In this document: one piece after another, positions 1 through 10,268 of the stretch
How positions within the stretch are numbered: position 1 is the stretch's first letter
How the letters are laid out: every line of letters starts with the position of its first letter
DNA from: Candidatus Electronema aureum
GTDB lineage: Bacteria > Desulfobacterota > Desulfobulbia > Desulfobulbales > Desulfobulbaceae
Direction of reading: 5' to 3'
DNA length: 10,268 nucleotides
Assembly (NCBI GenBank): GCA_004284765.1
Contig: NQJD01000057.1
Location: forward strand, 1-10,268
Made by a program: the position numbers and the translations under genes
The notes under the pieces: model-generated
What the model was told of the DNA's origin: nothing
Seen by the model: only the letters and a program-made list of their open reading frames with translations
Database searches by the model: none

Positions 1-1
1 A

Positions 2-151
2 GTCAAATTCATCCGAAAGCGCATCGAATCAGCATTCAGCGTCATCACCCAAAGATTTCCAGCGCATATTCATGCTGTCACCTCGCATGGCTTTGAATTG
101 AAGGTTTTTCTTTTTATCTTGGCTTACGGCATTGAAAAAACAATGTTATAG
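2..151 (+). CDS. 3' end of a DDE transposase gene entering from the left edge (IS982 / IS4-IS5-like C-terminus); partial
   Basis: The frame starting at nt 2 is open to TAG at 149-151. It reads VKFIRKRIESAFSVITQRFPAHIHAVTSHGFELKVFLFILAYGIEKTML. The block R-x-R-IE-x-x-F-x-x-I...F...HA.T..GF.LK is the conserved C-terminal signature I associate with IS982/IS5-type DDE transposases. It is absent from the ORF track because no start codon lies in the window. Confidence 0.45.
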   Translation, partial: VKFIRKRIESAFSVITQRFPAHIHAVTSHGFELKVFLFILAYGIEKTML

Positions 152-179
152 GTCACAACTTGGGTTCTGAGGTAAGATT

Positions 180-785
180 ATGCGTAAATTATTTCTAATT
201 TCTATTTTACTCCTTGCTTCAACGTCTGTCCATGCTGAGGAAAACAAGGGCGACTGGATTGCCGACGCGAAAACCGGCTGCAAGGTCTGGAATCCTGTTC
301 CTGCTTCGGATGAATCCATCACTTGGTTAGGCACATGCAAGGACGGCAAGGGGGACGGCAAAGGCTCCTTGGATTGGTATAAAAATAGCGAGCTGCAAAG
401 CACCATCACCGGCGTGATGCAAGATGGCCGCTGCGTTCAGGAATGCTCTGTCAAAACGAAGGGCGGAGACAGCTACGTCGGCGAAATGAAGGACAACCTG
501 CCGCACGGCAAAGGCAAAATCATCCGTGCTGATGGCGGAAAATATGAGGGGGAAATAAAAGACGGCGAACGGCATGGCAAAGGAACCTTTGTCGCCAAAG
601 ACGGCAGTTTGCAGGAAGAGTTGTGGGAGGCATACGGGAAGCTGCCTGCAGCTGTTCAAGAGCTGGTCGACAAAAATTTCGAGCTGCTGAAGGATGATCC
701 CTGTCATCCTTCTTTGCATCTCAAGCGCATTGAAGAGTTGTGGTCAGTGCGGGTTGGGACGGCAATATCGCGCCCTCGGCATTGA
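180..785 (+). CDS. Secreted MORN-repeat protein, 3'-truncated and fused in frame to a RelE/ParE-type toxin fragment (chimeric ORF)
   Basis: ATG at 180 is preceded by GAGGT (168-172). The signal peptide is MRKLFLISILLLASTSVHA/EE. MORN-type repeats are present: YVGEMKDNLPHGKGKII, YEGEIKDGERHGKGTFV and the degenerate WLGTCKDGKGDGKGSLDW. From about residue 145 the sequence switches to toxin-like LWEAYGKLPAAVQELVDKNFELLKDDPCHPSLHLKRIEELWSVRVG. Confidence 0.7.
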   Translation: MRKLFLISILLLASTSVHAEENKGDWIADAKTGCKVWNPVPASDESITWLGTCKDGKGDGKGSLDWYKNSELQSTITGVMQDGRCVQECSVKTKGGDSYVGEMKDNLPHGKGKIIRADGGKYEGEIKDGERHGKGTFVAKDGSLQEELWEAYGKLPAAVQELVDKNFELLKDDPCHPSLHLKRIEELWSVRVGTAISRPRH

Positions 786-854
786 CTCGCCCGACGGCAT
801 TCAGTGGATATGGATCGGCAGCTTCACGCGGAATACGACCGGCTCGTCAAGTGA
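612..854 (+). pseudogene. RelE/ParE-superfamily toxin remnant, N-terminally truncated, with two frameshifts
   Basis: The toxin sequence can be followed across three reading segments. Segment 1 (frame of nt 180) is ...KLPAAVQELVDKNFELLKDDPCHPSLHLKRIEELWSVRVG, ending at 758. Segment 2 (760-822, +1 frame) is RQYRALGIDSPDGIQWIWIGS. Segment 3 (825-854, original frame) is HAEYDRLVK then TGA. Joined, they give the canonical ...HPSL..K....WS.R.G..YRALG......W.WIGSHAEYD.L toxin C-terminus. The first 15-20 residues and any antitoxin gene are missing. Confidence 0.65.
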
Positions 855-874
855 ACACAGGCGGTAGCAACGAA

Positions 875-1915
875 ATGACAAGCTGGCAGGAAGAATTAAA
901 AAACGCTATCACCAACAGCGCAGGGTTGGCCTGTGCGCTGGGCTACGATCCGGCAGCGGCAGAGGCGATCATTGCCCGCTATCCAATGCGGATCACTCCC
1001 TATTATCTGGAGCTGATTAAAAAGGCAGGCGAGCCGCTGCGCCGGCAGGCAGTGCCGGATTTGCGCGAGCTGGAAGATCCAGTGGGCATGGAAGACCCGC
1101 TTGGCGAGGAAAACTTGAGTCCAGTACCCAATCTGGTGCATAAATACCCAGACCGGGTGCTGCTTTTAGTCAGCGGCCAGTGCGCCATGTACTGCCGTTT
1201 CTGCACCCGCAAGCGTAAGGTAGGTGGCGAGGCTCTGCGCTTCAGCGAGGAGCATTTCGTCGCCGCGCTGGACTATCTGCGTAACACTCCGTCCGTGCGC
1301 GAGGTGCTGATCTCCGGCGGCGATCCGCTGCTGCTTGCTGATGAGCGGCTGGAGGATATTCTGCGGCGACTGCGGGAAATCAAGAGCATCGAGATTATTC
1401 GCATCGGCACCCGCACGCCCTGCACCCTACCGATGCGCATCACGCCGAAACTCTGCGCTATGCTGCGTCAGTTCCATCCGCTCTACATCAACACGCACTT
1501 CAACCACCCGGCGGAGCTGACCAAAGAGGCAGAGCGAGCCTGCACATTGCTGGCCGACGCAGGCATTCCGCTCGGCTGCCAAACCGTGCTGCTGAAAGGG
1601 GTGAATGATTCTGCGGAAGTGCTGGGCAAGCTGTTTTGCGGCTTGCTGCGGCTGCGGGTTAAACCGTATTATCTCATGCAGGCTGACCTGACCAAAGGCA
1701 CCGGCCATTTTCGTACTCCGATCAAAGCCGGGCTGGAAATTATGCGCCAGCTTATCGGCACGGTCTCTGGCATGGCTGTGCCTAAATTTGTGTTAGATGC
1801 TCCCAGCGGTAAGGGAAAAATCCCGCTTACTCCAGACTACATCACCGCCATGCAAGAGGGCAGGCTGGAATTTGTCAATTTCCAAGGGCTGCCCTGCTCT
1901 TATCCCTTGGAATAA
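875..1915 (+). CDS. KamA-family radical SAM protein (lysine 2,3-aminomutase-like, short about 346 aa form)
   Basis: The radical-SAM cluster motif CAMYCRFCTRKR is present, followed by ISGGDPLL, HFNHP, VLLKGVND, PYYLMQADLTKGTGHFRT and VPKFVLDAPSGKGKIP. All are hallmarks of the KamA/EpmB family. I chose the ATG at 875 (MTSWQEELKNAI...). The track ORF start at 740 lies out of frame across the toxin remnant and is unlikely to be real. Confidence 0.9.
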   Translation: MTSWQEELKNAITNSAGLACALGYDPAAAEAIIARYPMRITPYYLELIKKAGEPLRRQAVPDLRELEDPVGMEDPLGEENLSPVPNLVHKYPDRVLLLVSGQCAMYCRFCTRKRKVGGEALRFSEEHFVAALDYLRNTPSVREVLISGGDPLLLADERLEDILRRLREIKSIEIIRIGTRTPCTLPMRITPKLCAMLRQFHPLYINTHFNHPAELTKEAERACTLLADAGIPLGCQTVLLKGVNDSAEVLGKLFCGLLRLRVKPYYLMQADLTKGTGHFRTPIKAGLEIMRQLIGTVSGMAVPKFVLDAPSGKGKIPLTPDYITAMQEGRLEFVNFQGLPCSYPLE

Positions 1916-1922
1916 GGGATGA

Positions 1923-2732
1923 TTAGAAATTACTCGGAAAATTTTCTTCAACATCAAGCTGCTGATTGATCATTACCACACTATTTTGCAGTAAACCTTT
2001 CCGCACAGCATACTTGTCATTTTCCGCTACGATATATGGCACCTGTCGTTCTTGCTCAAAGGCATCATAACCTTCTCGAAGATTTTCCCAAAAAGATATC
2101 CATTGGGAATTTTTGTTCTGTTCCATATTTTCCTTAGTCATGCGAAAGGGAAATATGTGAACGCTGAATTGTTTCTGGCCTTGAAGAAAAGCCTGATAAG
2201 CAAGTAAATAAATTTCCTCGACCTGAAGGTTACCCATTGCGAAACAACCTTGAGAAATGCACTTACCATGCACCATAATGTCGCCGCCGGTGCGCTGGTT
2301 CTCGCGATCAACTACATTGGGATAACCGATGTCAAAGGAAAGATGATATCTGCTGGCTGGATTGAGTTGGCCACCAGAAACGGTGTAAAAACCTTCTGGG
2401 CTTTGCATATCGCCTTCGCGCAACTTAGGACCAACAGACCCAGAATAGGTACAGATAGGATAAATTTTGAATAGCTCAAATTTATTTCCTTTCTGCACCC
2501 ATACTTCCATCTGTTTTGAGAGCTTGAAAATGCGGATAAATACCGGATCGCCAAGTTGTAGCCCTTTAGCTTTGAGCTGCCGCAAAACTCGAGGCTGGGC
2601 ATTGGCCATGTACGTTTCGGCCTTAGGGCTGGTGGGAGGATATCCGTCCAGCAGCTGCGCGGAGGACAAGACGGGAACAAGAAAAAAAGCCGCTCCCAGC
2701 AGGAGAGGGGCAAACAGGGTGCGGAGGCGCAT
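1923..2732 (-). CDS. yafK: YafK-type L,D-transpeptidase-fold periplasmic protein (YkuD domain)
   Basis: The signal peptide is MRLRTLFAPLLLGAAFFLVPVLSSA. By eye the protein aligns end to end with E. coli YafK: VFIRIFK, ICTYSGSVGPKLREGDMQSPEGFY, LNPASRYH, IGYPN, the catalytic MVHGKCISQGCFAM (H-G-x-C-x-S-x-GC) and IFPFRMT...FWENLREGYDAFE. Confidence 0.85.
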   Translation of the reverse strand: MRLRTLFAPLLLGAAFFLVPVLSSAQLLDGYPPTSPKAETYMANAQPRVLRQLKAKGLQLGDPVFIRIFKLSKQMEVWVQKGNKFELFKIYPICTYSGSVGPKLREGDMQSPEGFYTVSGGQLNPASRYHLSFDIGYPNVVDRENQRTGGDIMVHGKCISQGCFAMGNLQVEEIYLLAYQAFLQGQKQFSVHIFPFRMTKENMEQNKNSQWISFWENLREGYDAFEQERQVPYIVAENDKYAVRKGLLQNSVVMINQQLDVEENFPSNF

Positions 2733-2850
2733 GTCTGTTTGTTGGTGAATGTTAGGATTGATTCAGACGACCTGTTTCGCCCTAGCGTAAGCGGTTGTCG
2801 TACATTTAACCAGCATTGATCAGCAAAAGCTATTTACCGGATGGCTCTGG

Positions 2851-4005
2851 TTACAGCAATTCATCGCGTTGCTTGGATAATTTTTCTATTTTATCAGTAT
2901 CAACCTTCATGTAAATCTGAATAAATAAATCACCGAGATTGCTTCTTGTGTGCGGTATCAGCATATCATTTTCTGTCTCATACGAAGTAATAGCTCGTTG
3001 CAAATCAGCGTCATATTTTTTATCTATTTTACCGTTATAGTGATTCAACTCTTTCAACATCAGCTTGAGATATTTAATTCGTTCATGCTCATCAAGCGCA
3101 AGCCATTTCTGATATGCCGATACGGTCGCGTCAGGATTTGGCCCATCTACTGCAAAGCAAGGAGAAAAATCAATTTGCTTATATATGCCCCTAAGTGTCC
3201 ATAATACTGCGGCTTCAATCAGCGTTCGTTGTGCACCGTGTAAACCTTCTTTCAGTTTAGACTGCGCTGCAAAACTCATAGAACCTTCGCCGTAGCCAAA
3301 ACCAACAGAAAATTTGTCTGATTCAGTATAGCTATTGAGCGTCAGTGTCGTAGCGGCACCAACCGTATTTTTGAAGGCATCACCTAAATACACAGCCAAC
3401 GACAGGCTTCTTGAAGCTCTGGAAATGCCGTATTCAATTTCTGCTTGCCCATGACTGCCAGTTGTTTCTGCGCCGCTGCCTGATCCTTTATTCATGTAAT
3501 CAGAGGAATCATTTTGGGTATATACCCCTTTCACTCTGATTGCAGCTGAAGCACCGTACATTTTGGTCATATCCCGCATATAAATGGGATCAAGCATTCC
3601 GAACTTATTTTCATCCGCCAAACCAACGGGCATTGAATAAGGAATGACCATCTTTTTATGAGAGAGACTTCTTCTAATGATAGCCTCAAAATCATATTTT
3701 CCACTATCAGCCAGCGGTCCGTTTTCTCTTGCATATCTACCGGTCAATATCTTACTGTCCGGTACGACAGGAACTGTGCCATCGTAAAAATCGTCAACCA
3801 ACAGTAAGATAGCTGGAGTTTCAGATTTATTGATTTCCCGCCCCATACATTTCAAAGTTTCTGTCAGATTGGTGGAGGCAGGATGCGGTGTTTCAGCAGT
3901 AATATTGGACATCGAAGAATTAACATTAGAGCAGCCACTATTCGCAAGCAGAAAGAAGCCGCTCAAGCATACTGTTCCAATGAATATACTCCTTTGTTTT
4001 TGCAT
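2851..4005 (-). CDS. Outer-membrane lipoprotein, CsgG/HfaB-like putative secretion channel with a C-terminal helical extension
   Basis: The N-terminus MQKQRSIFIGTVCLSGFFLLANSGC/SN resembles the CsgG LLSGC lipobox, but Asn at -3 is atypical. The core follows CsgG block order by eye. ILLLVDDFYDGT matches IFVSVYNIQDETG. YDFEAIIRRSLSHKKMVIP matches ATAMLVTALKDSRWFIP. IRVKGVYTQND...GSGSG...SLSLAVYLGD...TLTLNSY...VGFGYGEG...EGLHGAQRTLIEAAVLWTL matches IMVEGSIIGYES...GGVG...AVNLRVVN...EGEVGYTSNEPVMLCLMSAIETGVIFL. No HMM search was run. Confidence 0.55.
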   Translation of the reverse strand: MQKQRSIFIGTVCLSGFFLLANSGCSNVNSSMSNITAETPHPASTNLTETLKCMGREINKSETPAILLLVDDFYDGTVPVVPDSKILTGRYARENGPLADSGKYDFEAIIRRSLSHKKMVIPYSMPVGLADENKFGMLDPIYMRDMTKMYGASAAIRVKGVYTQNDSSDYMNKGSGSGAETTGSHGQAEIEYGISRASRSLSLAVYLGDAFKNTVGAATTLTLNSYTESDKFSVGFGYGEGSMSFAAQSKLKEGLHGAQRTLIEAAVLWTLRGIYKQIDFSPCFAVDGPNPDATVSAYQKWLALDEHERIKYLKLMLKELNHYNGKIDKKYDADLQRAITSYETENDMLIPHTRSNLGDLFIQIYMKVDTDKIEKLSKQRDELL

Positions 4006-4034
4006 AGAAATATTATTGATCCGAATGCGAAAGC

Positions 4035-4062
4035 TGTATAAACAGGTTCAAACGCATGGCAA
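4035..4062 (-). promoter_or_regulatory. Possible sigma70-type internal promoter for the lipoprotein gene
   Basis: The minus strand reads TTGCCA (4062-4057), a 16-nt spacer, then TATACA (4040-4035), about 30 nt upstream of the ATG at 4005. This is a motif match only. Confidence 0.25.
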
Positions 4063-4194
4063 CCATCAGATCGGAATTTCAGCAGAAAATAAAAAAACTA
4101 CGCAAGTAGAAAAAATCAGCGTCGTTGATGTGAGTTACAAAAAAGATTTAGGATGTAGCAGCAAAACAGAATGAAGCTTATTTTCTGTAATCAT

Positions 4195-4530
4195 CTACTG
4201 GCATTCAAACACAATTGTATTGACATCAATATATTGAAAGGAATCTCCTGAGCCTTCATTGTAGTTTCCATAGAAAATACACTTGGGTTCAATCGGATTA
4301 TCAACAATGATATTTCCTTCAGGTAGCAAATACCCATTCGTTTCAGGAACTACGCTACTTTCACGGCTTTCTGCTGTATTTTGCTTAAGAACGCTATTTT
4401 TTTGATTCAGTACAGAATTTATGCTTGGATTCATCTGCACATCAGGTATGGCCACTTTTTTGATTTCTGCCGCACAAATTCCATGCCAGAGAGCGATGCT
4501 ACAGATGATGGGCATAAAATATTTCTTCAT
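4195..4530 (-). CDS. Small secreted protein (about 111 aa precursor), function unknown; candidate accessory factor of the fibre operon
   Basis: I prefer the ATG at 4530, which has AAGGTG 6 nt upstream, over the TTG at 4560 used in the track. The signal peptide is MKKYFMPIICSIALWHGICA/AE. The N-terminal half is N/S/Q-rich with the tandem NSVLNQK-NSVLKQN. The C-terminal part is compact, with two Cys (PKCIFYG and the terminal FECQ). Confidence 0.7.
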   Translation of the reverse strand: MKKYFMPIICSIALWHGICAAEIKKVAIPDVQMNPSINSVLNQKNSVLKQNTAESRESSVVPETNGYLLPEGNIIVDNPIEPKCIFYGNYNEGSGDSFQYIDVNTIVFECQ

Positions 4531-4556
4531 AACAGCACCTTGAGGCTGACAATTTT

Positions 4557-4988
4557 TCAATTGCAGGAATCGCAGCTTGTTATAACGTTAATGCCTTGAA
4601 TTCCACCGCTGGTGTTACGAGAAGTCAGCGTGACTACGCCGTTGATGATCGCCATCTGAGATATTGCATCCGCGCTGCCACGATAAATATTAACTCCTTG
4701 CACAACGTTATCTCCCTCTGAAGTTATCAGCAAAAGATCATATTCGATTGATGCAACCTGAACGGCTTTTCCGCTATAAGAAGAATTAGTGATCACGTTG
4801 ATCCCCTGAGTGCTGCTACTGTCGCTGTATGATTCTAAAGTAAGTTCACTGCCGACTTGAACACCCTGAAATAAACCTGCATCATAGGCATCTGTAAATT
4901 GATCAAAGACAGTAAAATCTGCACATACAGCTATCAACGGATTAAACAATATCCCTGCCAAGGATACGATTAGACATATTTTTACCAT
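4557..4988 (-). CDS. Secreted repeat protein, paralogue 1 (QG[IV]N-repeat protein; candidate fibre subunit)
   Basis: AGGAGG (5002-4997) lies 8 nt upstream of the ATG at 4988. The track starts one codon earlier, at the GTG at 4991. The signal peptide ends ...PLIAVCA/DF. The mature part is rich in G/S/T/V/I/N/Q and almost free of K and R. It has three units of about 20 aa: LTLESYSDSSSTQGINVIT, LLLITSEGDNVVQGVNIYRG and VVTLTSRNTSGGIQGINVIT. It ends SCDSCN. Confidence 0.8.
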   Translation of the reverse strand: MVKICLIVSLAGILFNPLIAVCADFTVFDQFTDAYDAGLFQGVQVGSELTLESYSDSSSTQGINVITNSSYSGKAVQVASIEYDLLLITSEGDNVVQGVNIYRGSADAISQMAIINGVVTLTSRNTSGGIQGINVITSCDSCN

Positions 4989-5144
4989 CACAGATTCCTC
5001 CTGGCAGTCGGGATATGCTCCGTAACGTATCCTCCTTACTCAAAGGCGACTGCGGAACATCACAACCTTGTTGCGGCAATCCTGATCCAACGACGACATA
5101 ATCCTTTAACTTGAACCATTCAGAATGGAATAATTAGATCACCG

Positions 5145-5195
5145 GACAGGAAAAAATTCGGATTACATAAGCTCCGATTTCAAGTTTTTCCTGTC
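5145..5195 (-). promoter_or_regulatory. Two-tier stem-loop 10 nt downstream of the first paralogue (possible attenuator or mRNA stability element)
   Basis: GACAGGAAAAA (5145-5155) is perfectly complementary to TTTTTCCTGTC (5185-5195), giving 11 bp. An inner 5-bp stem pairs TCGGA (5158-5162) with TCCGA (5173-5177). No U-tract follows on the minus strand, so this is not a canonical intrinsic terminator. Confidence 0.4.
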
Positions 5196-5204
5196 TCCGT
5201 CCAC

Positions 5205-5636
5205 TCATTCACAGTTTGTCCCGCAAGCGGTTACAAGGTTAATACCTTGCACAACGTCAGCACTGTTCGAGGAGGTGATAGCTACCGCACCAGTTACAGA
5301 TGCACCCTGCACCATCATTATAGGCACTTCCCCACGAAACACATTGACACCCTGACGTATTCCTGTTCCAGCACTGGTGGAAATTTCAATACCAGTATCA
5401 GCAGACACCTTTTGATGAAGCTCAGGCGAGCTTGCAAACGTGTTACCGATCACTACGTTACCGCCGAAAACGCCACTGTCGGCATAACTTGAGTCGATAG
5501 AAAGTTTATCGCCGCTGACCGCTAATCCTTGGGCGATACCCTCAACGATACCTGCGAAGGGATCGAATTCCGCCATAGCTGCTTGGGGATAAAGGGCTAA
5601 ACCTAATGCTACTGCAAAACTAATTTTTTTCCACAT
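5205..5636 (-). CDS. Secreted repeat protein, paralogue 2 (QG[IV]N-repeat protein; candidate major fibre subunit)
   Basis: AAGGAG lies 6 nt upstream of the ATG at 5636. The signal peptide is MWKKISFAVALGLALYPQAAMA/EF. The protein is colinear with paralogue 1: KLSIDSSYADSGVFGGNVVIGN, IEISTSAGTGIRQGVNVFRG and VAITSSNSADVVQGINLVT. It ends ACGTNCE. Confidence 0.8.
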   Translation of the reverse strand: MWKKISFAVALGLALYPQAAMAEFDPFAGIVEGIAQGLAVSGDKLSIDSSYADSGVFGGNVVIGNTFASSPELHQKVSADTGIEISTSAGTGIRQGVNVFRGEVPIMMVQGASVTGAVAITSSNSADVVQGINLVTACGTNCE

Positions 5637-5662
5637 GGTTATCTCCTTTTGACTAAAAAAAG

Positions 5663-5750
5663 CAAGTGAAAAGCAAAAACTTTTGCCTTTTTCTTACTTC
5701 CAGTATAAATCAACAGGCCAAGCAAATCAAGTGAAAAAGCAAAAAAACTT
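5663..5750. repeat. Pair of direct repeats in the fibre-operon control region
   Basis: CAAGTGAAAAGCAAAAACTT (5663-5682) and CAAGTGAAAAAGCAAAAAAACTT (5728-5750) are identical except for A-run lengths. Their start positions are 65 bp apart. One overlaps the putative -35 element and the other lies in the putative leader. Confidence 0.6.
5702..5730 (-). promoter_or_regulatory. Putative sigma70-type promoter of the fibre operon
   Basis: The minus strand reads TTGATT (5730-5725), a 17-nt spacer, then TATACT (5707-5702). This predicts a leader of about 60 nt to the ATG at 5636. This is a motif match only. Confidence 0.35.
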
Positions 5751-5977
5751 AATAAGATGCACCGCAAAGTAGGACTTTACGTCCTAATTGTTTCCTGCAT
5801 ATAAAAAGTTGAGTTTTTCCGCCTCTCGATAGCTTGTGGCTCTCTTCAAGAGAGTCAGCATTAGGAGTTACGCAGTTGGTAAAATCAGTCAATATCTGTT
5901 GATATTATTTGTTAAACTCCGACTAATTATAATTTCGAACAATTTCTTGAACTGGTAAAGTTTTTTGAACTTCGAGC

Positions 5978-6006
5978 TTGACAGAAACGTTTTTTTCACG
6001 TATCCT
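5978..6006 (+). promoter_or_regulatory. Putative sigma70-type promoter of the divergent DUF11-like gene
   Basis: A perfect TTGACA (5978-5983) is followed by a 17-nt spacer and TATCCT (6001-6006). This predicts a leader of about 100 nt to the ATG at 6113. Confidence 0.4.
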
Positions 6007-6112
6007 GCTAAGGAAGAGATATTTTAAAGCAGGTAGCTGGCGCGGAGGAAAGCCCGGACATAGTGTTGGCGGCGGCCAGAGTTTCCTGTTTTTCTGTTAT
6101 GGAGAAAAAACT

Positions 6113-6559
6113 ATGAAAATAACATTCCGCATTACTGCTCCGCTCTTGTTGGGCTGCGCTTTACTGGTCTCCAGTCTTGTTTCAGCAGAAGAAATGTTAA
6201 CCTGCGGTGGCGACAGCGGACATAGTCCTGCTGTCCGTAAAATTAAAGCAACGGTGGATGCACCGGGGATTGCCATTAAAACAGGCAGCGAGGCCGAACA
6301 AGATCAGTGGACGTATAACATCACCAACACTGGCAACGTCAAGCTGACTAATGTCCAAGTGACTGACGAGCGGTTCATCAAAATCAGCTGTCAGCAGGAT
6401 GTGTTAGATGTAGGTGAATCAATGGGGTGTACTGCTTCTGAGCCATCAGAAATTGCCGAGACTACGAACATGGGTTGCGCGGTTGCTGATCATGTCGTTT
6501 ACAATGAAGTTGGTGTAACCGTGACAACCAAGGGTGATTGCGTTGCCGCAATGCATTAA
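6113..6559 (+). CDS. Secreted Cys-rich protein with a single DUF11-like (TIGR01451 'conserved repeat domain') Ig-like module
   Basis: GGAGA lies 7-8 nt upstream of the ATG at 6113. The track start at 5978 is a TTG inside the promoter. The signal peptide is MKITFRITAPLLLGCALLVSSLVSA/EE. WTYNITNTGNVKLTNVQVTDE...VLDVGESMGCTAS matches the y-t-i-t-v-t-N-t-G-n-v-t-L-t-n-V-x-V-t-D...L-x-P-G-E-S-x-x-C-T-A signature. The mature protein has five Cys. Confidence 0.7.
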   Translation: MKITFRITAPLLLGCALLVSSLVSAEEMLTCGGDSGHSPAVRKIKATVDAPGIAIKTGSEAEQDQWTYNITNTGNVKLTNVQVTDERFIKISCQQDVLDVGESMGCTASEPSEIAETTNMGCAVADHVVYNEVGVTVTTKGDCVAAMH

Positions 6560-6613
6560 TCTGGTAGAATGCGCCGCAGTTAGATTGTACAGCTGAAAAT
6601 TTTGCTGCGTTCA

Positions 6614-6658
6614 AAGGGACACTTCGTTGATCAACGAAGTGTCCCTTATTTTTGATTT
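6614..6658 (+). terminator. Rho-independent terminator of the DUF11-like gene
   Basis: A perfect 34-nt palindrome AAGGGACACTTCGTTGA/TCAACGAAGTGTCCCTT (6614-6647) is followed by ATTTTTGATTT. Confidence 0.85.
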
Positions 6659-6714
6659 CAGTCTATTAAAGCCCACCTGTTTGCGCCGTAGCATTACTCA
6701 TTCTTAGATAACCT

Positions 6715-8058
6715 ATGAGCCATCCTTCCCTCCTTATTGCCGGAACCCACTCTGGTTGCGGCAAAACCACTGTCACTCTCGGCATCATGGCAGCACTACG
6801 TCAGCGCGGATTCACGGTGCAACCCTTCAAGTGCGGCCCGGATTTCATCGATCCCACCCTGCATCTATTAGCCACTGGGCAGGTCTCGCGCAACCTTGAC
6901 ATCCGCATGTGTGGCCCAGAGTACGTGCGGCAGGTCTTCGCCAACCATGCTCCGGCAACGGACGGCCCGGCTATCTCGGTGATCGAAGGAGTGATGGGCC
7001 TCTTTGATGGTGGCAGTGGCTCTGCGGCAGAGCTTGCTGTACTGCTCAAGGTACCGGTGTTACTGGTGTTAGATGTGTGTGCGGCAGCAGAGAGCGCAGC
7101 CGCTGTGGTCAAAGGTTTTGAGAGTCTTAATCCGCGCGTGCAGCTGGCTGGAGTGATCTTCAATCAGGTGGGCAGCACAAAACATCTTCAAATGGTGAGC
7201 GAGGCGGTCAAAGAGCATTGCCAAGCGGAGATCATCGGCTCGCTGCCCCGTGAAACCGGCATCAGTTTGCCCTCGCGTCACCTTGGCCTGCATCTTGGCA
7301 CTGAGGTTGCTCTCAATCAACAGCAGTTGATTAGTTTGATTGAAAAGCATCTTGACCTTGACCGTCTCATTCAGATAGCTGGAGAAGCCCAAGTTCCCGC
7401 AGTGCCGTCTATAACTCTACCATCAAAGATGATCGGAAAAGTGCGTCTTGGTTTAGCTTGGGACGAGGCATTTTGTTTTTATTATCAAGATAATTTTGAC
7501 CTGCTCACCGCTGCTGGAGCCGAGCTTGTTCTCTTTAGCCCTCTGCACGACAAGGTACTCCCAGAAAACGTAGATGGTCTCTATTTCGGCGGCGGTTATC
7601 CTGAGCTTCACGCGGCGCAGCTTGCTGCTAACCGGACGTTGCGCGAGCAAATTTTAGTCTTTTCTCGCACAGGCAGGCCAGTGTATGGTGAATGCGGTGG
7701 CTTCATGTACCTGTGCGAGGCAATTGTTGATAACGAAGGCTGCCAGCAACCAATGGTCGGGGTTTATCCAGTAATCACCCGCATGAGTCAGCGACTACGG
7801 CGACTGGGCTACTGCGAGGCAGAGCTACGCGAAGACAGTTTGCTTGGCTCGGCTGGCAGCGTTCTCTACGGTCACGAATTCCATTACTCCGAGATTGACC
7901 CCATGCCTGAGCAGGTGCGGCGCATCTACACGCTCGATGACGGCAGAGCTGAGGGCTATTTGATCAACAAAACCTTAGCCGGGTATGTCCACCTGCACTG
8001 GGGCAGAACCCCGGAAGCAGCGAAGCAGTTTGTTCAGGCGATGGTTGATAATTCATAG
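6715..8058 (+). CDS. cbiA: Cobyrinate a,c-diamide synthase (glutamine-hydrolysing)
   Basis: The N-terminal ATPase region is LLIAGTHSGCGKTTVTLGIMAALRQRGFTVQPFKCGPDFIDP, followed by EGVMGLFDG. The C-terminal glutamine amidotransferase region includes YGECGGFMYL and GHEFHYS. At 447 aa the length is typical of CbiA/CobB. Confidence 0.93.
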   Translation: MSHPSLLIAGTHSGCGKTTVTLGIMAALRQRGFTVQPFKCGPDFIDPTLHLLATGQVSRNLDIRMCGPEYVRQVFANHAPATDGPAISVIEGVMGLFDGGSGSAAELAVLLKVPVLLVLDVCAAAESAAAVVKGFESLNPRVQLAGVIFNQVGSTKHLQMVSEAVKEHCQAEIIGSLPRETGISLPSRHLGLHLGTEVALNQQQLISLIEKHLDLDRLIQIAGEAQVPAVPSITLPSKMIGKVRLGLAWDEAFCFYYQDNFDLLTAAGAELVLFSPLHDKVLPENVDGLYFGGGYPELHAAQLAANRTLREQILVFSRTGRPVYGECGGFMYLCEAIVDNEGCQQPMVGVYPVITRMSQRLRRLGYCEAELREDSLLGSAGSVLYGHEFHYSEIDPMPEQVRRIYTLDDGRAEGYLINKTLAGYVHLHWGRTPEAAKQFVQAMVDNS

Positions 8059-8226
8059 CAGCAGGCCATAACGAACGAAGAAGTATTGAGAAAATACAAG
8101 AGGCTGCCACAAGGAGACTTTTTTTTATTGCTAATCTTACGCAATCCCGGTAGTGGTAAAGATGAAGTATTTTTTAATTGGTCGCATCTCGGCCTTTCAG
8201 CTATCTCCTGCGGAGGACAGGAAATC

Positions 8227-9195
8227 ATGATTGAATCTATCGGTAGCCCGGTCTTGTATCTTGGCTTTACCCTACTTGTCATCGTCTTGCTGGCGGTTGA
8301 TTTCGTCGCTCTCAGAGTTCAAGGAAATCACCGGGTGAGCGTGAAGGAAGCGGCAGCTTGGTCAGCGGTATGGATTGCTATTTCGCTCGTGTTTTGCGGT
8401 GGCTTTTGGTGGTATCTTGATAGCAGCTTTGGGCGGGAGATTGCTAACAAAAAGGCTCTGGAATATCTCACCGGTTATCTGATTGAGAAATCGTTGGCGG
8501 TCGATAATGTCTTCATCTGGATTACCTTATTTGGTTTTTTCGCGGTGCCTCCCGCCTTCCAGAAGCGAGTGTTGCTGTACGGAGTGCTGGGTGCCATTAT
8601 AATGCGCGCTGTGCTGATTTTCATCGGGGCGATGCTGCTCGCCAAGTTTCATTGGATTTTGTATATCTTCGGCCTCTTCCTTGTACTAACTGGCGTAAAG
8701 ATGCTGATTTTTTCTAGCCACGAGCCTGATCTGGAGCAAAATCCTCTTCTGCGCTGGATGCGCGGTCACATGAAGATCACCAATGAATACCACGGAGAGC
8801 AATTTTTCGTACTCAAGGAAGGTGTGCGTTACGCCACTCCGATGTTCGTTGTTCTGATGTTGATCGAGGCAACAGACTTGATCTTTGCAGCCGATTCAAT
8901 TCCTGCCATCTTTGCTGTAACCAACGACCCCTTCATCGTTTTCACCTCCAACATTTTCGCCATCCTCGGCTTGCGAGCCATGTATTTCCTGCTTGCTGAT
9001 ATGGCAGAGCGTTTTCATCTGCTCAAGTACGGGCTGGCAGTCATCCTGATGTTCATTGGCGTGAAGATGTTACTGCTTGACATCTATAAAATTCCGGTTG
9101 GAATCGCCCTTGGCATTGTCGGACTGATTCTGGCATTATCCATTGCGGCCAGCTTCATTACCTCGCGCAGTGCCGATACAAAGAACGAACACTAA
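8227..9195 (+). CDS. alx: TerC-family integral membrane protein, Alx-like (putative Mn2+/redox-linked exporter)
   Basis: By eye the protein aligns along its full length with E. coli Alx: FWWYL, LEYLTGYLIEKSLAVDNVF, VPPAFQKRVLLYGVLGAI, ATDLIFAADSIPAIFAVTNDPFIVFTSNIFAILGLRAMYFLL and ERFHLLKYGLAVIL. The ATG at 8227 (MIESIGSPVLYLGF...) matches the Alx N-terminus and follows GGAGG (8212-8216). The TTG at 8086 in the track is an in-frame upstream artefact. Confidence 0.9.
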   Translation: MIESIGSPVLYLGFTLLVIVLLAVDFVALRVQGNHRVSVKEAAAWSAVWIAISLVFCGGFWWYLDSSFGREIANKKALEYLTGYLIEKSLAVDNVFIWITLFGFFAVPPAFQKRVLLYGVLGAIIMRAVLIFIGAMLLAKFHWILYIFGLFLVLTGVKMLIFSSHEPDLEQNPLLRWMRGHMKITNEYHGEQFFVLKEGVRYATPMFVVLMLIEATDLIFAADSIPAIFAVTNDPFIVFTSNIFAILGLRAMYFLLADMAERFHLLKYGLAVILMFIGVKMLLLDIYKIPVGIALGIVGLILALSIAASFITSRSADTKNEH

Positions 9196-9207
9196 AATTC
9201 TTCCCGA

Positions 9208-9242
9208 GGCAGAACCAGCAGCTTGCTGTTCTGCCTTTTTTT
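9208..9242 (+). terminator. Rho-independent terminator of alx
   Basis: GGCAGAAC (9208-9215) pairs with GTTCTGCC (9228-9235) around an internally paired loop. A T7 run follows (9236-9242). Confidence 0.8.
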
Positions 9243-9436
9243 ATATTAGACCTCTTGCATAAGTGAAACAGGACTTACGCAAAAGTCATATGGATAGCAG
9301 GTGACTTGAGTTGCTGCTTCAAATAGTCAGACAATAATCCGTGCTTGAGACGATAAACCGTCTGCTTGGTTTCATTGGCAACTTGTTTCAGACTTCAGAC
9401 GAACCCAGACCAGAATCGCACAGGCAATGTGATTGC

Positions 9437-9496
9437 GGACCTGATTTAAACCCGATAGAAAAATTTTGGGCTTCCATGAAGGCAAAAGTCAAGTAC
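9437..9496 (+). pseudogene. IS630/Tc1-mariner-family transposase fragment (C-terminal catalytic-E motif only)
   Basis: The translation GPDLNPIEKFWASMKAKVKY contains the highly conserved (S)PDLNPIE-x-x-W-x-x-[LM]K block of IS630-family DDE transposases. Neither the upstream nor the downstream sequence continues the family pattern, so only about 20 codons survive. Confidence 0.55.
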
Positions 9497-9514
9497 CACC
9501 GGCAGAGCCGGTGG
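9496..9514 (+). repeat. GC-rich palindromic hairpin unit, copy A
   Basis: CCACCGG-CAGAG-CCGGTGG forms a 7-bp stem with a 5-nt loop. The loop and core are identical to copy B. Confidence 0.6.
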
Positions 9515-9690
9515 CTTGCGGTTGCTGGCCCCTCAAAGGGGCCTGATCGCAACCGGAAGTGCTGCATGACGGGGAAATCTCTTTGCACCCGACAGGGCTT
9601 CATAACCAAGAGGGAAAAGCGGATATACGCCGTCATGCCACCACCCCAATTGCAAAAAAAATATTCCCGGAACTGTCAAACTTCGGGAGT

Positions 9691-9709
9691 CCCCCGGCAG
9701 AGCCGGGGG
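9691..9709 (+). repeat. GC-rich palindromic hairpin unit, copy B
   Basis: CCCCCGG-CAGAG-CCGGGGG differs from copy A at one stem position on each arm (A->C and T->G), so pairing is preserved. On the plus strand it is followed by TTTACTTGTTT. On the minus strand it is followed by a second weak hairpin (9687-9666) and a U8 run (A-run at 9654-9661). It may therefore act as a terminator for the toxin-antitoxin operon. Confidence 0.5.
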
Positions 9710-9777
9710 TTTACTTGTTTAAATTAAAAAAATAGCTGACGGCATCAAGAGTTTAAGCGTTTGCGTCGAGACGGTGT

Positions 9778-9987
9778 TCAAGACGATCTAAAAACTGAAG
9801 CACTATAGTCGCCGATGCGGACACGGTAGAACGTGTCATATCCTTTTAGCTTCTTCACTTGGCTGATCTCGGTCAGGCTTTCCGCCTCTTTACAGGCAAG
9901 CAGCAGCTCCTTGACCGCTTTCAGCAGTCTGCCGTTGCTGACCTGCTTCAGGTCTTTCGCAAACTTGGCCTCAAACCGGACGTTCAT
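9778..9987 (-). CDS. RelE/ParE-family type II toxin, apparently C-terminally truncated (69 aa)
   Basis: MNVRFEAKFAKDLKQVSNGRLLKAVKELLLACKEAESLTEISQVKKLKGYDTFYRVRIGDY matches the ParE_toxin/RelE pattern (F.K.LK...KKLKG....YR.RIGDYR). After GDY the frame gives SASVFRSS and a stop, so the usual 25-30 C-terminal residues are missing. The +1 frame reads IVLQFLDRLEHRLD, weakly like the expected V.F.R.LHR.D tail. Confidence 0.7.
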   Translation of the reverse strand: MNVRFEAKFAKDLKQVSNGRLLKAVKELLLACKEAESLTEISQVKKLKGYDTFYRVRIGDYSASVFRSS

Positions 9988-10193
9988 TCTGCCGCCCGGT
10001 CAAGAAGTGAGAGAACTTCCTCCTCTGAGACGAACTCGTTCTTACAGCCTTCGGCAATGGCGTTGGCTAAACCGACTTCCTCCAGAGCCTCCATTAAGAT
10101 GTCCCGGATCAGGTCGCGCTTGGTGCGGAGCAGCTCAATCATCACTTCGGTGAGCAGCTCCTTGGTCTTGTCATCGCTGATTGAAAGTTCCAT
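9984..10193 (-). CDS. Putative cognate antitoxin of the RelE/ParE toxin
   Basis: This is a 69-aa acidic, helical protein (MELSISDDKTKELLTEVMIELLRTKRDL...AIAEGCKNEFVSEEEVLSLLDRAAE). Its TGA stop overlaps the toxin ATG in an ATGA overlap (9984-9987), the classic type II toxin-antitoxin arrangement. I did not recognise the family. Confidence 0.65.
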   Translation of the reverse strand: MELSISDDKTKELLTEVMIELLRTKRDLIRDILMEALEEVGLANAIAEGCKNEFVSEEEVLSLLDRAAE

Positions 10194-10268
10194 GCTGGTT
10201 ATGCTGGTTGAATGTCCTTGGTGATTTTCATGCCCCTTGCCTTCCCTTCTGGCTCTGCCGCGCCAGCA

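Follow-up and report, generated by a model that had tools for sequence, protein, structure and literature searches.

A candidate curli-type secretion and assembly module with Fap-like repeat subunits in cable bacteria and beyond

To our knowledge, curli and Fap are the only well-characterized dedicated functional-amyloid export systems in Gram-negative bacteria. The adjacent paralogs FapB and FapC consist of three imperfect repeats of 37-39 amino acids, each forming one cross-β layer with conserved Asn/Gln arrays, and they frequently carry a C-terminal CxxC motif outside the core (PMC6173800, PMC12392863). Here, a stretch of 10,268 nucleotides from the freshwater cable bacterium Candidatus Electronema aureum (assembly GCA_004284765.1, contig NQJD01000057.1, positions 1 to 10,268 of the forward strand; referred to as the window) was analyzed, which contains neighboring genes for two paralogous repeat proteins (P1 and P2), a small protein (S), and a lipoprotein (LP). 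On balance, it appears probable that these four genes form one functional module that would secrete and assemble amyloid-like fibers as a divergent type VIII (curli-type) system. The module would then be the third system of this kind, in which a curli-type channel is combined with Fap-like subunits of three repeats each and with an accessory protein that is an orphan. An earlier interpretation based on the letters of the window alone (the sequence-only reading) had suggested a new type VIII-like secretion or functional-amyloid system; this suggestion is supported, with export and fiber formation still inferred and with a module that is not specific to this organism.

Gene set and the CsgG-like lipoprotein

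The four open reading frames (ORFs) are co-oriented on the minus strand and all encode exported proteins, at the positions given by the sequence-only reading. P1 (5205..5636) and P2 (4557..4991) encode secreted β-solenoid repeat proteins of 143 and 144 amino acids, which are candidates for a major subunit and for a minor subunit or nucleator, respectively. Both genes have strong Shine-Dalgarno sites, AAGGAGA six nucleotides 5' of the ATG of P1 and AGGAGG for P2. S (4195..4530) encodes a secreted protein with a candidate accessory role. Its start is most likely the ATG at 4530, which lies behind AAGGTG, so that the product probably has 111 amino acids; the TTG at 4560, which gives the 121-amino-acid form originally read (ORF 4195-4560), is the less likely start. 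LP (2851..4005) encodes a predicted outer-membrane lipoprotein of 384 amino acids, and no recognizable Shine-Dalgarno site was seen upstream of its start. These genes were compared across 22 loci, 14 from cable bacteria and eight distant ones (L015, L026-L032).

LP shares 99% identity with a hypothetical protein of 'Desulfobulbus sp. F1' and with its homolog in Ca. Electronema nielsenii F5, and all 40 close named homologs come from the cable-bacterium genera Electronema and Electrothrix. The deposited F1 protein VU05_00565 (P0001) has 371 amino acids and is thus 13 residues shorter than the LP ORF at 2851-4005. The 384-amino-acid form, in which the extra residues supply the positively charged start of a lipoprotein signal peptide, is probably correct. 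In the following lipobox [SA]-G-C, which includes the Cys25 codon at 3931-3933 (minus strand), both G24 and C25 reach at least 90% conservation across 30 homologs, and residue +2 is Ser or Thr.

An AlphaFold2 (AF2) model of LP calculated with 30 homologs was of moderate quality, with a predicted local distance difference test score (pLDDT) of 67.8 and a predicted template modeling score (pTM) of 0.60. It runs from a helix, a strand, a helix, and a strand to long hairpins (residues 154-248), then to a long helix (residues 255-274) and a helical C-terminal domain. This is the secondary-structure order of the CsgG protomer, which has an α/β core, two long hairpins, and a C-terminal core helix. 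In a Foldseek search against the PDB, the top five matches were CsgG chains (6l7c, 4uv3, 6l7a, 6si7; E 1.4e-6 to 3.4e-6, probability 1.0). The alignments of about 250 columns span the whole of CsgG, and the best match is CsgG in its membrane-bound form, whereas other lipoproteins with the core fold, namely HpaA, FlgT, GNA1162, and PelC (E 1e-5 to 1e-2) as well as CT253, ranked lower.

As the template modeling (TM) scores of the CsgG alignments were low, independent sequence evidence was sought. A deep profile search yielded about 45 full-length LP relatives outside the orthologous group, which were used for a broad alignment (A3). When A3 was aligned by hhalign with an alignment of 11 CsgG/HfaB members (A7; E. 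coli and ten annotated plasmid-borne genes, 22-56% identity), the probability was 86.7% (E 4.3e-6, 231 columns). The match is colinear between residues 1-273 of LP and 1-245 of CsgG; it starts at the lipobox, passes through β-1, which contains a D-x-T motif, and through the two hairpin regions, and reaches the last core helix. Thus, the CsgG/HfaB block order that the sequence-only reading had seen in the 384-amino-acid lipoprotein is confirmed by profile-profile alignment, and the Foldseek comparison it had recommended, with an E value of about 1e-6, points the same way. With a profile restricted to cable bacteria (A1), hhalign gave 25% only. A single-sequence comparison already aligned the first transmembrane hairpin region. 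A tblastn search with LP and two distant relatives against plasmids yielded nothing beyond a weak match to an Azospirillum DUF4384 sequence that covers the C-terminal half.

The hairpins at about residues 154-248 resemble the CsgG transmembrane hairpins in being Gly-rich and amphipathic, with alternating hydrophobic and polar residues and short polar tips. The alternating residues are A188/I190/Y192/V194 in hairpin 1 and L221/L223 and F232/I234/F236/Y238 in hairpin 2. Where CsgG has its constriction loop, the loop of LP (about residues 80-100) is longer and partly variable, with a conserved E-N-G-P-L-A-D.

The CsgG-like core (about residues 45-275; 3181-3873, minus strand) is followed by a helical domain (about residues 292-365; 2911-3132, minus strand), which was overlooked when LP was first recognized as a CsgG-like lipoprotein. 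Residues 307-346 of this domain give the only Pfam or NCBIfam signal in LP, a weak match to PG_binding_1 (E 0.003). In LP relatives, the same position is occupied by PG_binding_1 (12 of 44), SPOR (two, plus the LP of the distant locus L030, which ends in a SPOR domain), or PG_binding_3 (one). Judging from these matches, the C-terminal domain is predicted to be a peptidoglycan-binding module. LP is therefore a remote CsgG homolog that represents a separate, unnamed family and carries a cell-wall anchor in addition. In the large marine Electrothrix species TB, gigas, AUS3, and YB6 (P0028, P0035, P0037, P0038), the peptidoglycan-binding-like domain is followed by a long Lys/Pro/Glu-rich tandem-repeat tail with units like KKQEKTLPGKTTKKFDAEPAEQRGRVHSP, which Electronema does not have. 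Another LP paralog (P0067) is found in Electrothrix AX5.

The cell-wall anchor bears on an alternative explanation, according to which the module builds an envelope-internal structure. LP would be a PelC/FlgT-like, peptidoglycan-tied ring in the outer membrane that nucleates or anchors periplasmic P filaments and that, in cable bacteria, could contribute to the ridge and fiber compartment or to cell-cell junctions. The interchangeable peptidoglycan-binding modules of the LP family and the occurrence of the core fold in non-channel lipoproteins agree with this explanation. The same is true for a gene encoding a YafK/DpaA-like peptidoglycan-lipoprotein enzyme after LP in 10 of the 14 cable-bacterium loci, for the location of the module next to murB-ftsQAZ in Electrothrix GW3-4, and for the position of the cable-bacterium fibers, which resist sodium dodecyl sulfate (SDS), on a probable peptidoglycan layer (PMC8238962; PMC11976967). 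However, the two long amphipathic hairpins by which CsgG differs from PelC, FlgT, and HpaA are present in LP, whose best structural match is the membrane-bound form of CsgG. In addition, uncontrolled periplasmic polymerization of an amyloid-like subunit is normally toxic, and the YafK and dcw neighborhoods are not kept outside subsets of cable bacteria. Altogether, an envelope-internal structure is regarded as unlikely.

The repeat paralogs, the accessory protein, and a proposed mechanism

P1 and P2 are paralogs with 35% identity (E 2e-16), as had been read from the sequence, and both have a signal peptide. In P1, the signal peptide ends with ...AMA|EF and is followed by a conserved N-terminal F-D-P-F-x-G-I-V, three repeats of about 35 amino acids, and a C-terminal C-G-T-N-C. 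P2 has an N-terminal V-F-D-Q-F, a Q...S...Q-G-[IV]-N ladder in each of its three rungs, and a C-terminal C-D-S-C. All named members of the 20 P1 ortholog clusters are from cable bacteria, and the same is true for the 59 clusters found in a P profile search (E 1e-51 to 1e-25, none weaker). In an alignment of 60 P sequences, only F8, N41, Q54, N77, Q88, Q108, and N111 are invariant, and the invariant Asn and Gln residues recur with a period of 34-36 residues. None of the 60 proteins contains Trp, none has a Cys residue in the core, and 40 of them terminate in C-x(2-4)-C. The mature forms of P1 and P2 carry net charges of -8 and -10, respectively, and are acidic. At least one P copy with the C-x(2-4)-C ending is kept in every cable-bacterium genome sampled. 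The C-terminal CxxC was nevertheless rejected as a family-defining trait, as it is missing from 14 of the 60 members and from most non-cable homologs.

The AF2 model of mature P2 (pLDDT 88.4, pTM 0.81) shows an N-terminal helix followed by nine strands arranged as 3 x 3. P2 is thus confidently modeled as a three-rung β-solenoid with one 34-36 residue repeat per rung and with Gln/Asn ladders, which speaks against globular periplasmic paralogs, an outcome that had been named as unfavorable to the original idea. The top PDB match of this model in Foldseek is the FapC amyloid 9u4u (E 4.7e-4, probability 0.30, TM 0.15), and the other matches are generic solenoids, i.e., ice-binding proteins, the SV2 luminal domain, bactofilin, and the CsgA fibril. 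At the sequence level, the profile of the P alignment (A4) found no FapC chain at E <= 10 and nothing relevant among PDB sequences. Hhalign of A4 gave a probability of 0.9% with E. coli CsgA and of 4% with CsgB, the latter for the signal peptide part only. P proteins match no Pfam or NCBIfam family, including the Curlin repeat.

The accessory protein S has a three-part layout in an alignment of 12 sequences (A6), in which a conserved N-terminal segment (AEIKKxxIPDV...PSLNSV) is followed by a variable linker and then by a conserved domain of about 50 amino acids at the C-terminus. This domain has the pattern TNGY...VD...EPKC[VI]FYGNYN...C-x with two invariant Cys residues. The layout recalls CsgF, which is only an analogy; hhalign of A6 gave 0.3% with CsgF and 0.8% with CsgE, and S has no match in Pfam or NCBIfam. 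Accordingly, the statement of the sequence-only reading that the small proteins resemble no named family is valid at the sequence level, while the FapB/FapC-like architecture of P had escaped it. This resemblance is a match in architecture and no proof of homology.

Based on these features, the following mechanism is proposed. P1 and P2 would cross the inner membrane via Sec and would be held unpolymerized in the periplasm until they are handed to LP, probably via the conserved N-terminal F-x-x-F segment. LP would be lipid-anchored in the outer membrane, where an oligomer could build a barrel from two amphipathic β-hairpins per protomer for the passage of P, while the C-terminal domain would tie the complex to peptidoglycan. 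S, with its N-terminal peptide, flexible linker, and small, presumably disulfide-bonded head, might work at the channel in a CsgF- or CsgE-like way, serving as an adaptor, as a plug, or as a platform for nucleation. Once extracellular, each P subunit would fold as a three-rung β-solenoid with about 35 residues per rung and stacked Gln/Asn ladders. Head-to-tail stacking of these subunits would lead to an amyloid-like fiber, with P1 as the major subunit and P2 as the nucleator or minor subunit.

This division of labor is proposed because P1 has the first promoter and the strongest ribosome-binding site, because it is followed by a stem-loop, and because upstream copies with a P1-like Cys-pair ending are amplified in Electrothrix sp. 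YB6 (see below). P2 is the more conserved of the two types and adjoins S wherever both types occur. The putative promoter, TTGATT-17-TATACT at 5702..5730 (minus strand), lies about 65 nt upstream of the P1 start and is a consensus match only; in a consensus scan, five promoter-like sites were observed in the region, fewer than the mean of 8.0 in shuffled sequences. The stem-loop between P1 and P2 (5145..5195, minus strand) has 11-bp arms, GACAGGAAAAA / TTTTTCCTGTC. The predicted fold of 5120-5215 (-26.7 kcal/mol) is modestly more stable than that of shuffled sequences (z = -2.6), and the element may serve as a partial terminator or as an mRNA stabilizer that favors P1 over the downstream genes. 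A scan of the window with Rfam found no RNA family.

Several points weigh against a curli-type system. LP has no CsgG or HfaB match at E <= 1 in Pfam and NCBIfam, although these libraries include CsgG PF03783 and the HfaB models with which the sequence-only reading had wanted it checked. Such a match is also missing at E <= 0.01 for 43 distant LP relatives, and the LP profile found no CsgG chain among PDB sequences. The Foldseek TM-scores between LP and CsgG are 0.26-0.49, the LP model has a pLDDT of 68 and is of low confidence in the tips of the hairpins, and the core fold also occurs in the non-channel ring lipoproteins PelC, FlgT, HpaA, and GNA1162. The peptidoglycan-binding domain, which is foreign to known CsgG channels, could mean that LP acts in the periplasm. 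In sequence, P is not similar to CsgA, CsgB, or FapC, and its structural match to FapC is weak. Finally, a confident solenoid model of a monomer is no proof of polymerization, and the N-terminal helix could cap the solenoid.

The last point leads to another explanation, in which P is exported but remains a monomeric or surface-bound β-helix such as an adhesin, a surface coat, or an ice-binding-like protein, with LP and S as its dedicated exporter. Many PDB neighbors of the P2 model are indeed soluble β-helices, such as the ice-binding proteins and the SV2 luminal domain, the N-terminal helix could act as the cap mentioned above, and homologs with 10-11 repeats could serve as single rod-like adhesins. 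However, short three-rung forms, which are about 1.4 nm long, would be poor stand-alone adhesins. The Q-G-I-N-V-I-T ladder strand is present in both the first and the last rung of P2 and would continue across a head-to-tail interface, and two paralogs together with the six-fold amplification in YB6 fit a bulk structural polymer. We therefore rate a non-polymerizing P as rather unlikely and retain a fiber-forming, curli-type module as the favored explanation.

Conservation, distribution, and genomic neighborhood

The only genes common to all 14 cable-bacterium loci are P, S, and LP, which always occur in the order P-S-LP. The co-occurrence across genomes expected for a functional unit by the sequence-only reading thus holds for every cable-bacterium genome sampled and extends beyond this clade. 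The copy number of P ranges from one in Electrothrix GW3-4 and two in most cable-bacterium genomes to eight in Electrothrix sp. YB6 (CP178758.1; L012, 1905-6205). The tandem array in YB6 consists of one divergent copy, six identical copies of 141 amino acids, and one P2-type copy adjoining S. The upstream copies are thus amplified six-fold, and most have a P1-like ending with the C-terminal Cys pair. The six identical copies are spaced by 537 bp, which exceeds the period limit of 500 in Tandem Repeats Finder and makes the array invisible to this program. The array is either a real dosage amplification of the structural subunit or an assembly artifact.

A pattern scan of species-representative genomes found no close ortholog of the module outside cable bacteria. 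The eight distant loci, with 37% to 63% GC and otherwise unrelated neighbors, include one of Neisseria animaloris and that of a second paralog in E. gigas. The metagenome scan was seeded with a single distant protein. The taxonomic range outside cable bacteria is only sketched. In each of the eight loci, the LP-like gene has an S-like gene immediately upstream, and this gene is the best match to the S hidden Markov model among all ORFs of its four-locus set (E 2.5e-14 to 0.23, below 1e-3 in four of eight). P-like genes were found in seven of the eight loci (E 2e-18, 2e-14, 6e-9, 5e-6, 5e-6 plus 1e-6, 2.5e-7, and 0.018). In the Neisseria animaloris locus, the E values are 2e-18 for the P-like and 3e-7 for the S-like protein. 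None of the distant P- and S-like proteins matches a Pfam or NCBIfam family.

In all short P-like forms of the distant loci, the Q-[AG]-x-N motif occurs three times, with a spacing of 34-36 residues. Long forms of 496 and 472 amino acids, with 10-11 Q-A-x-N motifs spaced by 37-48 amino acids, are encoded in L030 (2963-7449) and L032 (2840-6925), respectively. In both loci, the long P-like gene is located upstream of S-LP and a further P-like gene with four repeats downstream of LP. The repeat number among P homologs thus varies from three to 10-11.

Given the same gene order in 14 of 14 cable-bacterium loci and its recurrence in the eight distant loci, the P-S-LP arrangement is far beyond chance. 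That the genes are accidental neighbors or have unrelated functions, with LP as a generic peptidoglycan-binding lipoprotein, is hardly credible. What suggests it is the region between S and LP, a 189-bp gap (4006..4194, minus strand) with a promoter-like site, TATACA-17-AATAAT at 4012-4040 (minus strand; consensus match only). Because of this gap and site, LP may be transcribed partly on its own, and it has no Shine-Dalgarno site. Against this stand the conserved order and the S-LP adjacency in eight of eight distant loci of widely differing GC content, where the other neighbors are unrelated. Specificity of the module for cable bacteria was considered as well and rejected, as the distant loci carry the same gene set. 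The curli-type module is probably a widespread, overlooked way of building cell-surface protein fibers. Current annotation pipelines are blind to it because no curated protein family covers P, S, or LP, and it is directly testable because it is present in the culturable Neisseria animaloris.

Some of the distant loci have informative surroundings. In L027 (832-8699), a PAS-GGDEF-EAL gene lies upstream of the module and genes for a glycosyltransferase and a mannose-1-phosphate guanylyltransferase lie downstream, a neighborhood that is typical of biofilm matrix and fits a surface or matrix role. In L026 (1-8058), a P-(S)-LP module is located between a gene for a TraG/TrwB-type coupling protein and a serine recombinase gene, and these neighbors suggest that it resides on an integrative or conjugative element and has spread horizontally. 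The second LP paralog of Electrothrix gigas (P0081; L029, 4485-5840) belongs to a divergent S-LP pair with no recognizable P upstream, near a Rep3 plasmid replication gene.

In the window, LP is followed after 118 bp by a gene for a YafK/DpaA-like protein with an L,D-transpeptidase fold (1923..2732, minus strand; NCBIfam LdtF_DpaA_YafK, E 6.8e-68, below the curated cut-off; Pfam YkuD). In E. coli, the YafK family detaches Braun's lipoprotein from peptidoglycan. This gene is absent from Electrothrix and from the distant loci and is a frequent neighbor rather than a core component. In Electrothrix sp. GW3-4 (L001, 1-10162), the single-P module directly follows murB-ftsQ-ftsA-ftsZ and a radical SAM gene and is itself followed by a gene for an omptin-family outer-membrane protease (Pfam 1.1e-10). 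Divergent from P1, a secreted DUF7507/DUF11-type protein is encoded at 5978-6559 (plus strand), and this gene is placed outside the module because the near-identical F5 locus is the only other one that has it. The remaining features of the window are a secreted MORN-repeat protein (180-785, plus strand), a KamA-like radical SAM enzyme of the lysine 2,3-aminomutase family (listed ORF 740-1915, plus strand), and, farther away, a remnant of an IS630-like DDE_3 transposase (9341-9727). The remnant adjoins a RelB-like antitoxin gene (9984-10193) that has a small overlapping partner ORF (9778-9987). The true start of the KamA-like gene is probably further downstream, as its listed ORF overlaps the end of the MORN ORF.

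Conductive fibers and comparison with known systems

The conductive fibers of cable bacteria are SDS-resistant, and the strands into which they unwind measure 3.1 +/- 0.2 nm (PMC11976967); the protein of these fibers is still unidentified (PMC11247825, PMC13047784, PMC11976967). Our literature searches found no paper linking cable bacteria with curli, CsgG, amyloid, or solenoids. It is conceivable, though very unlikely, that solenoid filaments of P1 and P2 are a structural component of the periplasmic conductive fibers. In that case, P could form the strands of about 3 nm or an insulating protein shell, and LP and S would nucleate the filaments under the outer-membrane ridges and tie them to peptidoglycan. 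The C-terminal Cys pair would then contribute to holding the sulfur-ligated nickel cofactor or to cross-linking of strands.

Compatible with such a role are the presence of the module in every cable-bacterium genome sampled with no close ortholog elsewhere in the pattern scan, the retention of a P copy with a terminal Cys pair in each of these genomes, and the amplification of P in YB6. A three-strand rung of 35 residues should be roughly 3 nm across, close to the strand diameter, and the SDS resistance and missing protein assignment of the fibers are compatible as well (PMC11976967, PMC8238962, PMC11247825). On the other hand, the occurrence of the module in non-electrogenic bacteria such as Neisseria animaloris argues against it, as does the CsgG-type channel, which points to export; furthermore, P is sulfur-poor and has no Trp. 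For cable bacteria, in which the protein basis of SDS-resistant envelope fibers has long been open, the module is a universally conserved, envelope-directed structural gene set, and even if it is unrelated to conduction it provides concrete candidates for fiber-sheath proteomics.

Regarding known systems, the module is most readily compared with curli. LP is homologous to the CsgG channel at the profile and fold level, and both are outer-membrane lipoproteins. In both systems, two adjacent paralogous genes (csgBA; P1/P2) encode secreted β-solenoid subunits with Gln/Asn ladders, a small secreted accessory protein is encoded beside the channel gene, and the repeat number varies among homologs of P as it does in CsgA. 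However, LP is missed by the CsgG models of Pfam and NCBIfam and has the extra peptidoglycan-binding domain. The P repeats comprise 34-36 amino acids with three strands per rung, in contrast to about 22 amino acids and two strands in CsgA, and P does not match the curlin repeat S-x5-Q-x-G-x-G-N-x-A-x3-Q. S has no sequence relationship with CsgE or CsgF (hhalign probability below 1%), equivalents of CsgC and CsgD are absent, and the genes of the module have one direction, whereas curli genes form two divergent operons.

In its subunits, the module is reminiscent of Fap, as P also has three repeats of similar length with one rung each, invariant Asn/Gln residues, a C-terminal Cys pair, and adjacent paralogs. 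The motifs differ, with Q-G-hydrophobic-N...Q-x-A in P and G-N-x-G-x-N...N-q-Q-N in FapC (PMC12392863). P is almost without linkers, and its exporter is CsgG-like, unlike the trimeric 12-stranded barrel FapF. No genes for the partners FapA, FapD (a C39 peptidase), FapE, and FapF were found in the window or at any of the 22 loci.

The Caulobacter holdfast system resembles the module in that a CsgG-family lipoprotein, HfaB, is encoded beside small secreted proteins that form stable surface assemblies of high molecular weight. HfaB is a recognized member of the CsgG/HfaB family, whereas LP is not, and P and S have no HfaA or HfaD similarity in the Pfam and NCBIfam libraries, a result obtained without direct comparison with Hfa sequences. 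PelC, FlgT, HpaA, and GNA1162 share the α/β core fold and the lipid anchor with LP; they are without the two long membrane-type hairpins of LP and CsgG and are not encoded beside solenoid repeat genes. The module therefore lies outside the curli, Hfa, and Fap systems and is a parallel system. While a CsgG-type channel serving solenoid subunits with Gln/Asn ladders is a kind of system already known, the three component families are undescribed, and the combination of a curli-like channel with a Fap-like subunit architecture and a peptidoglycan anchor is new.

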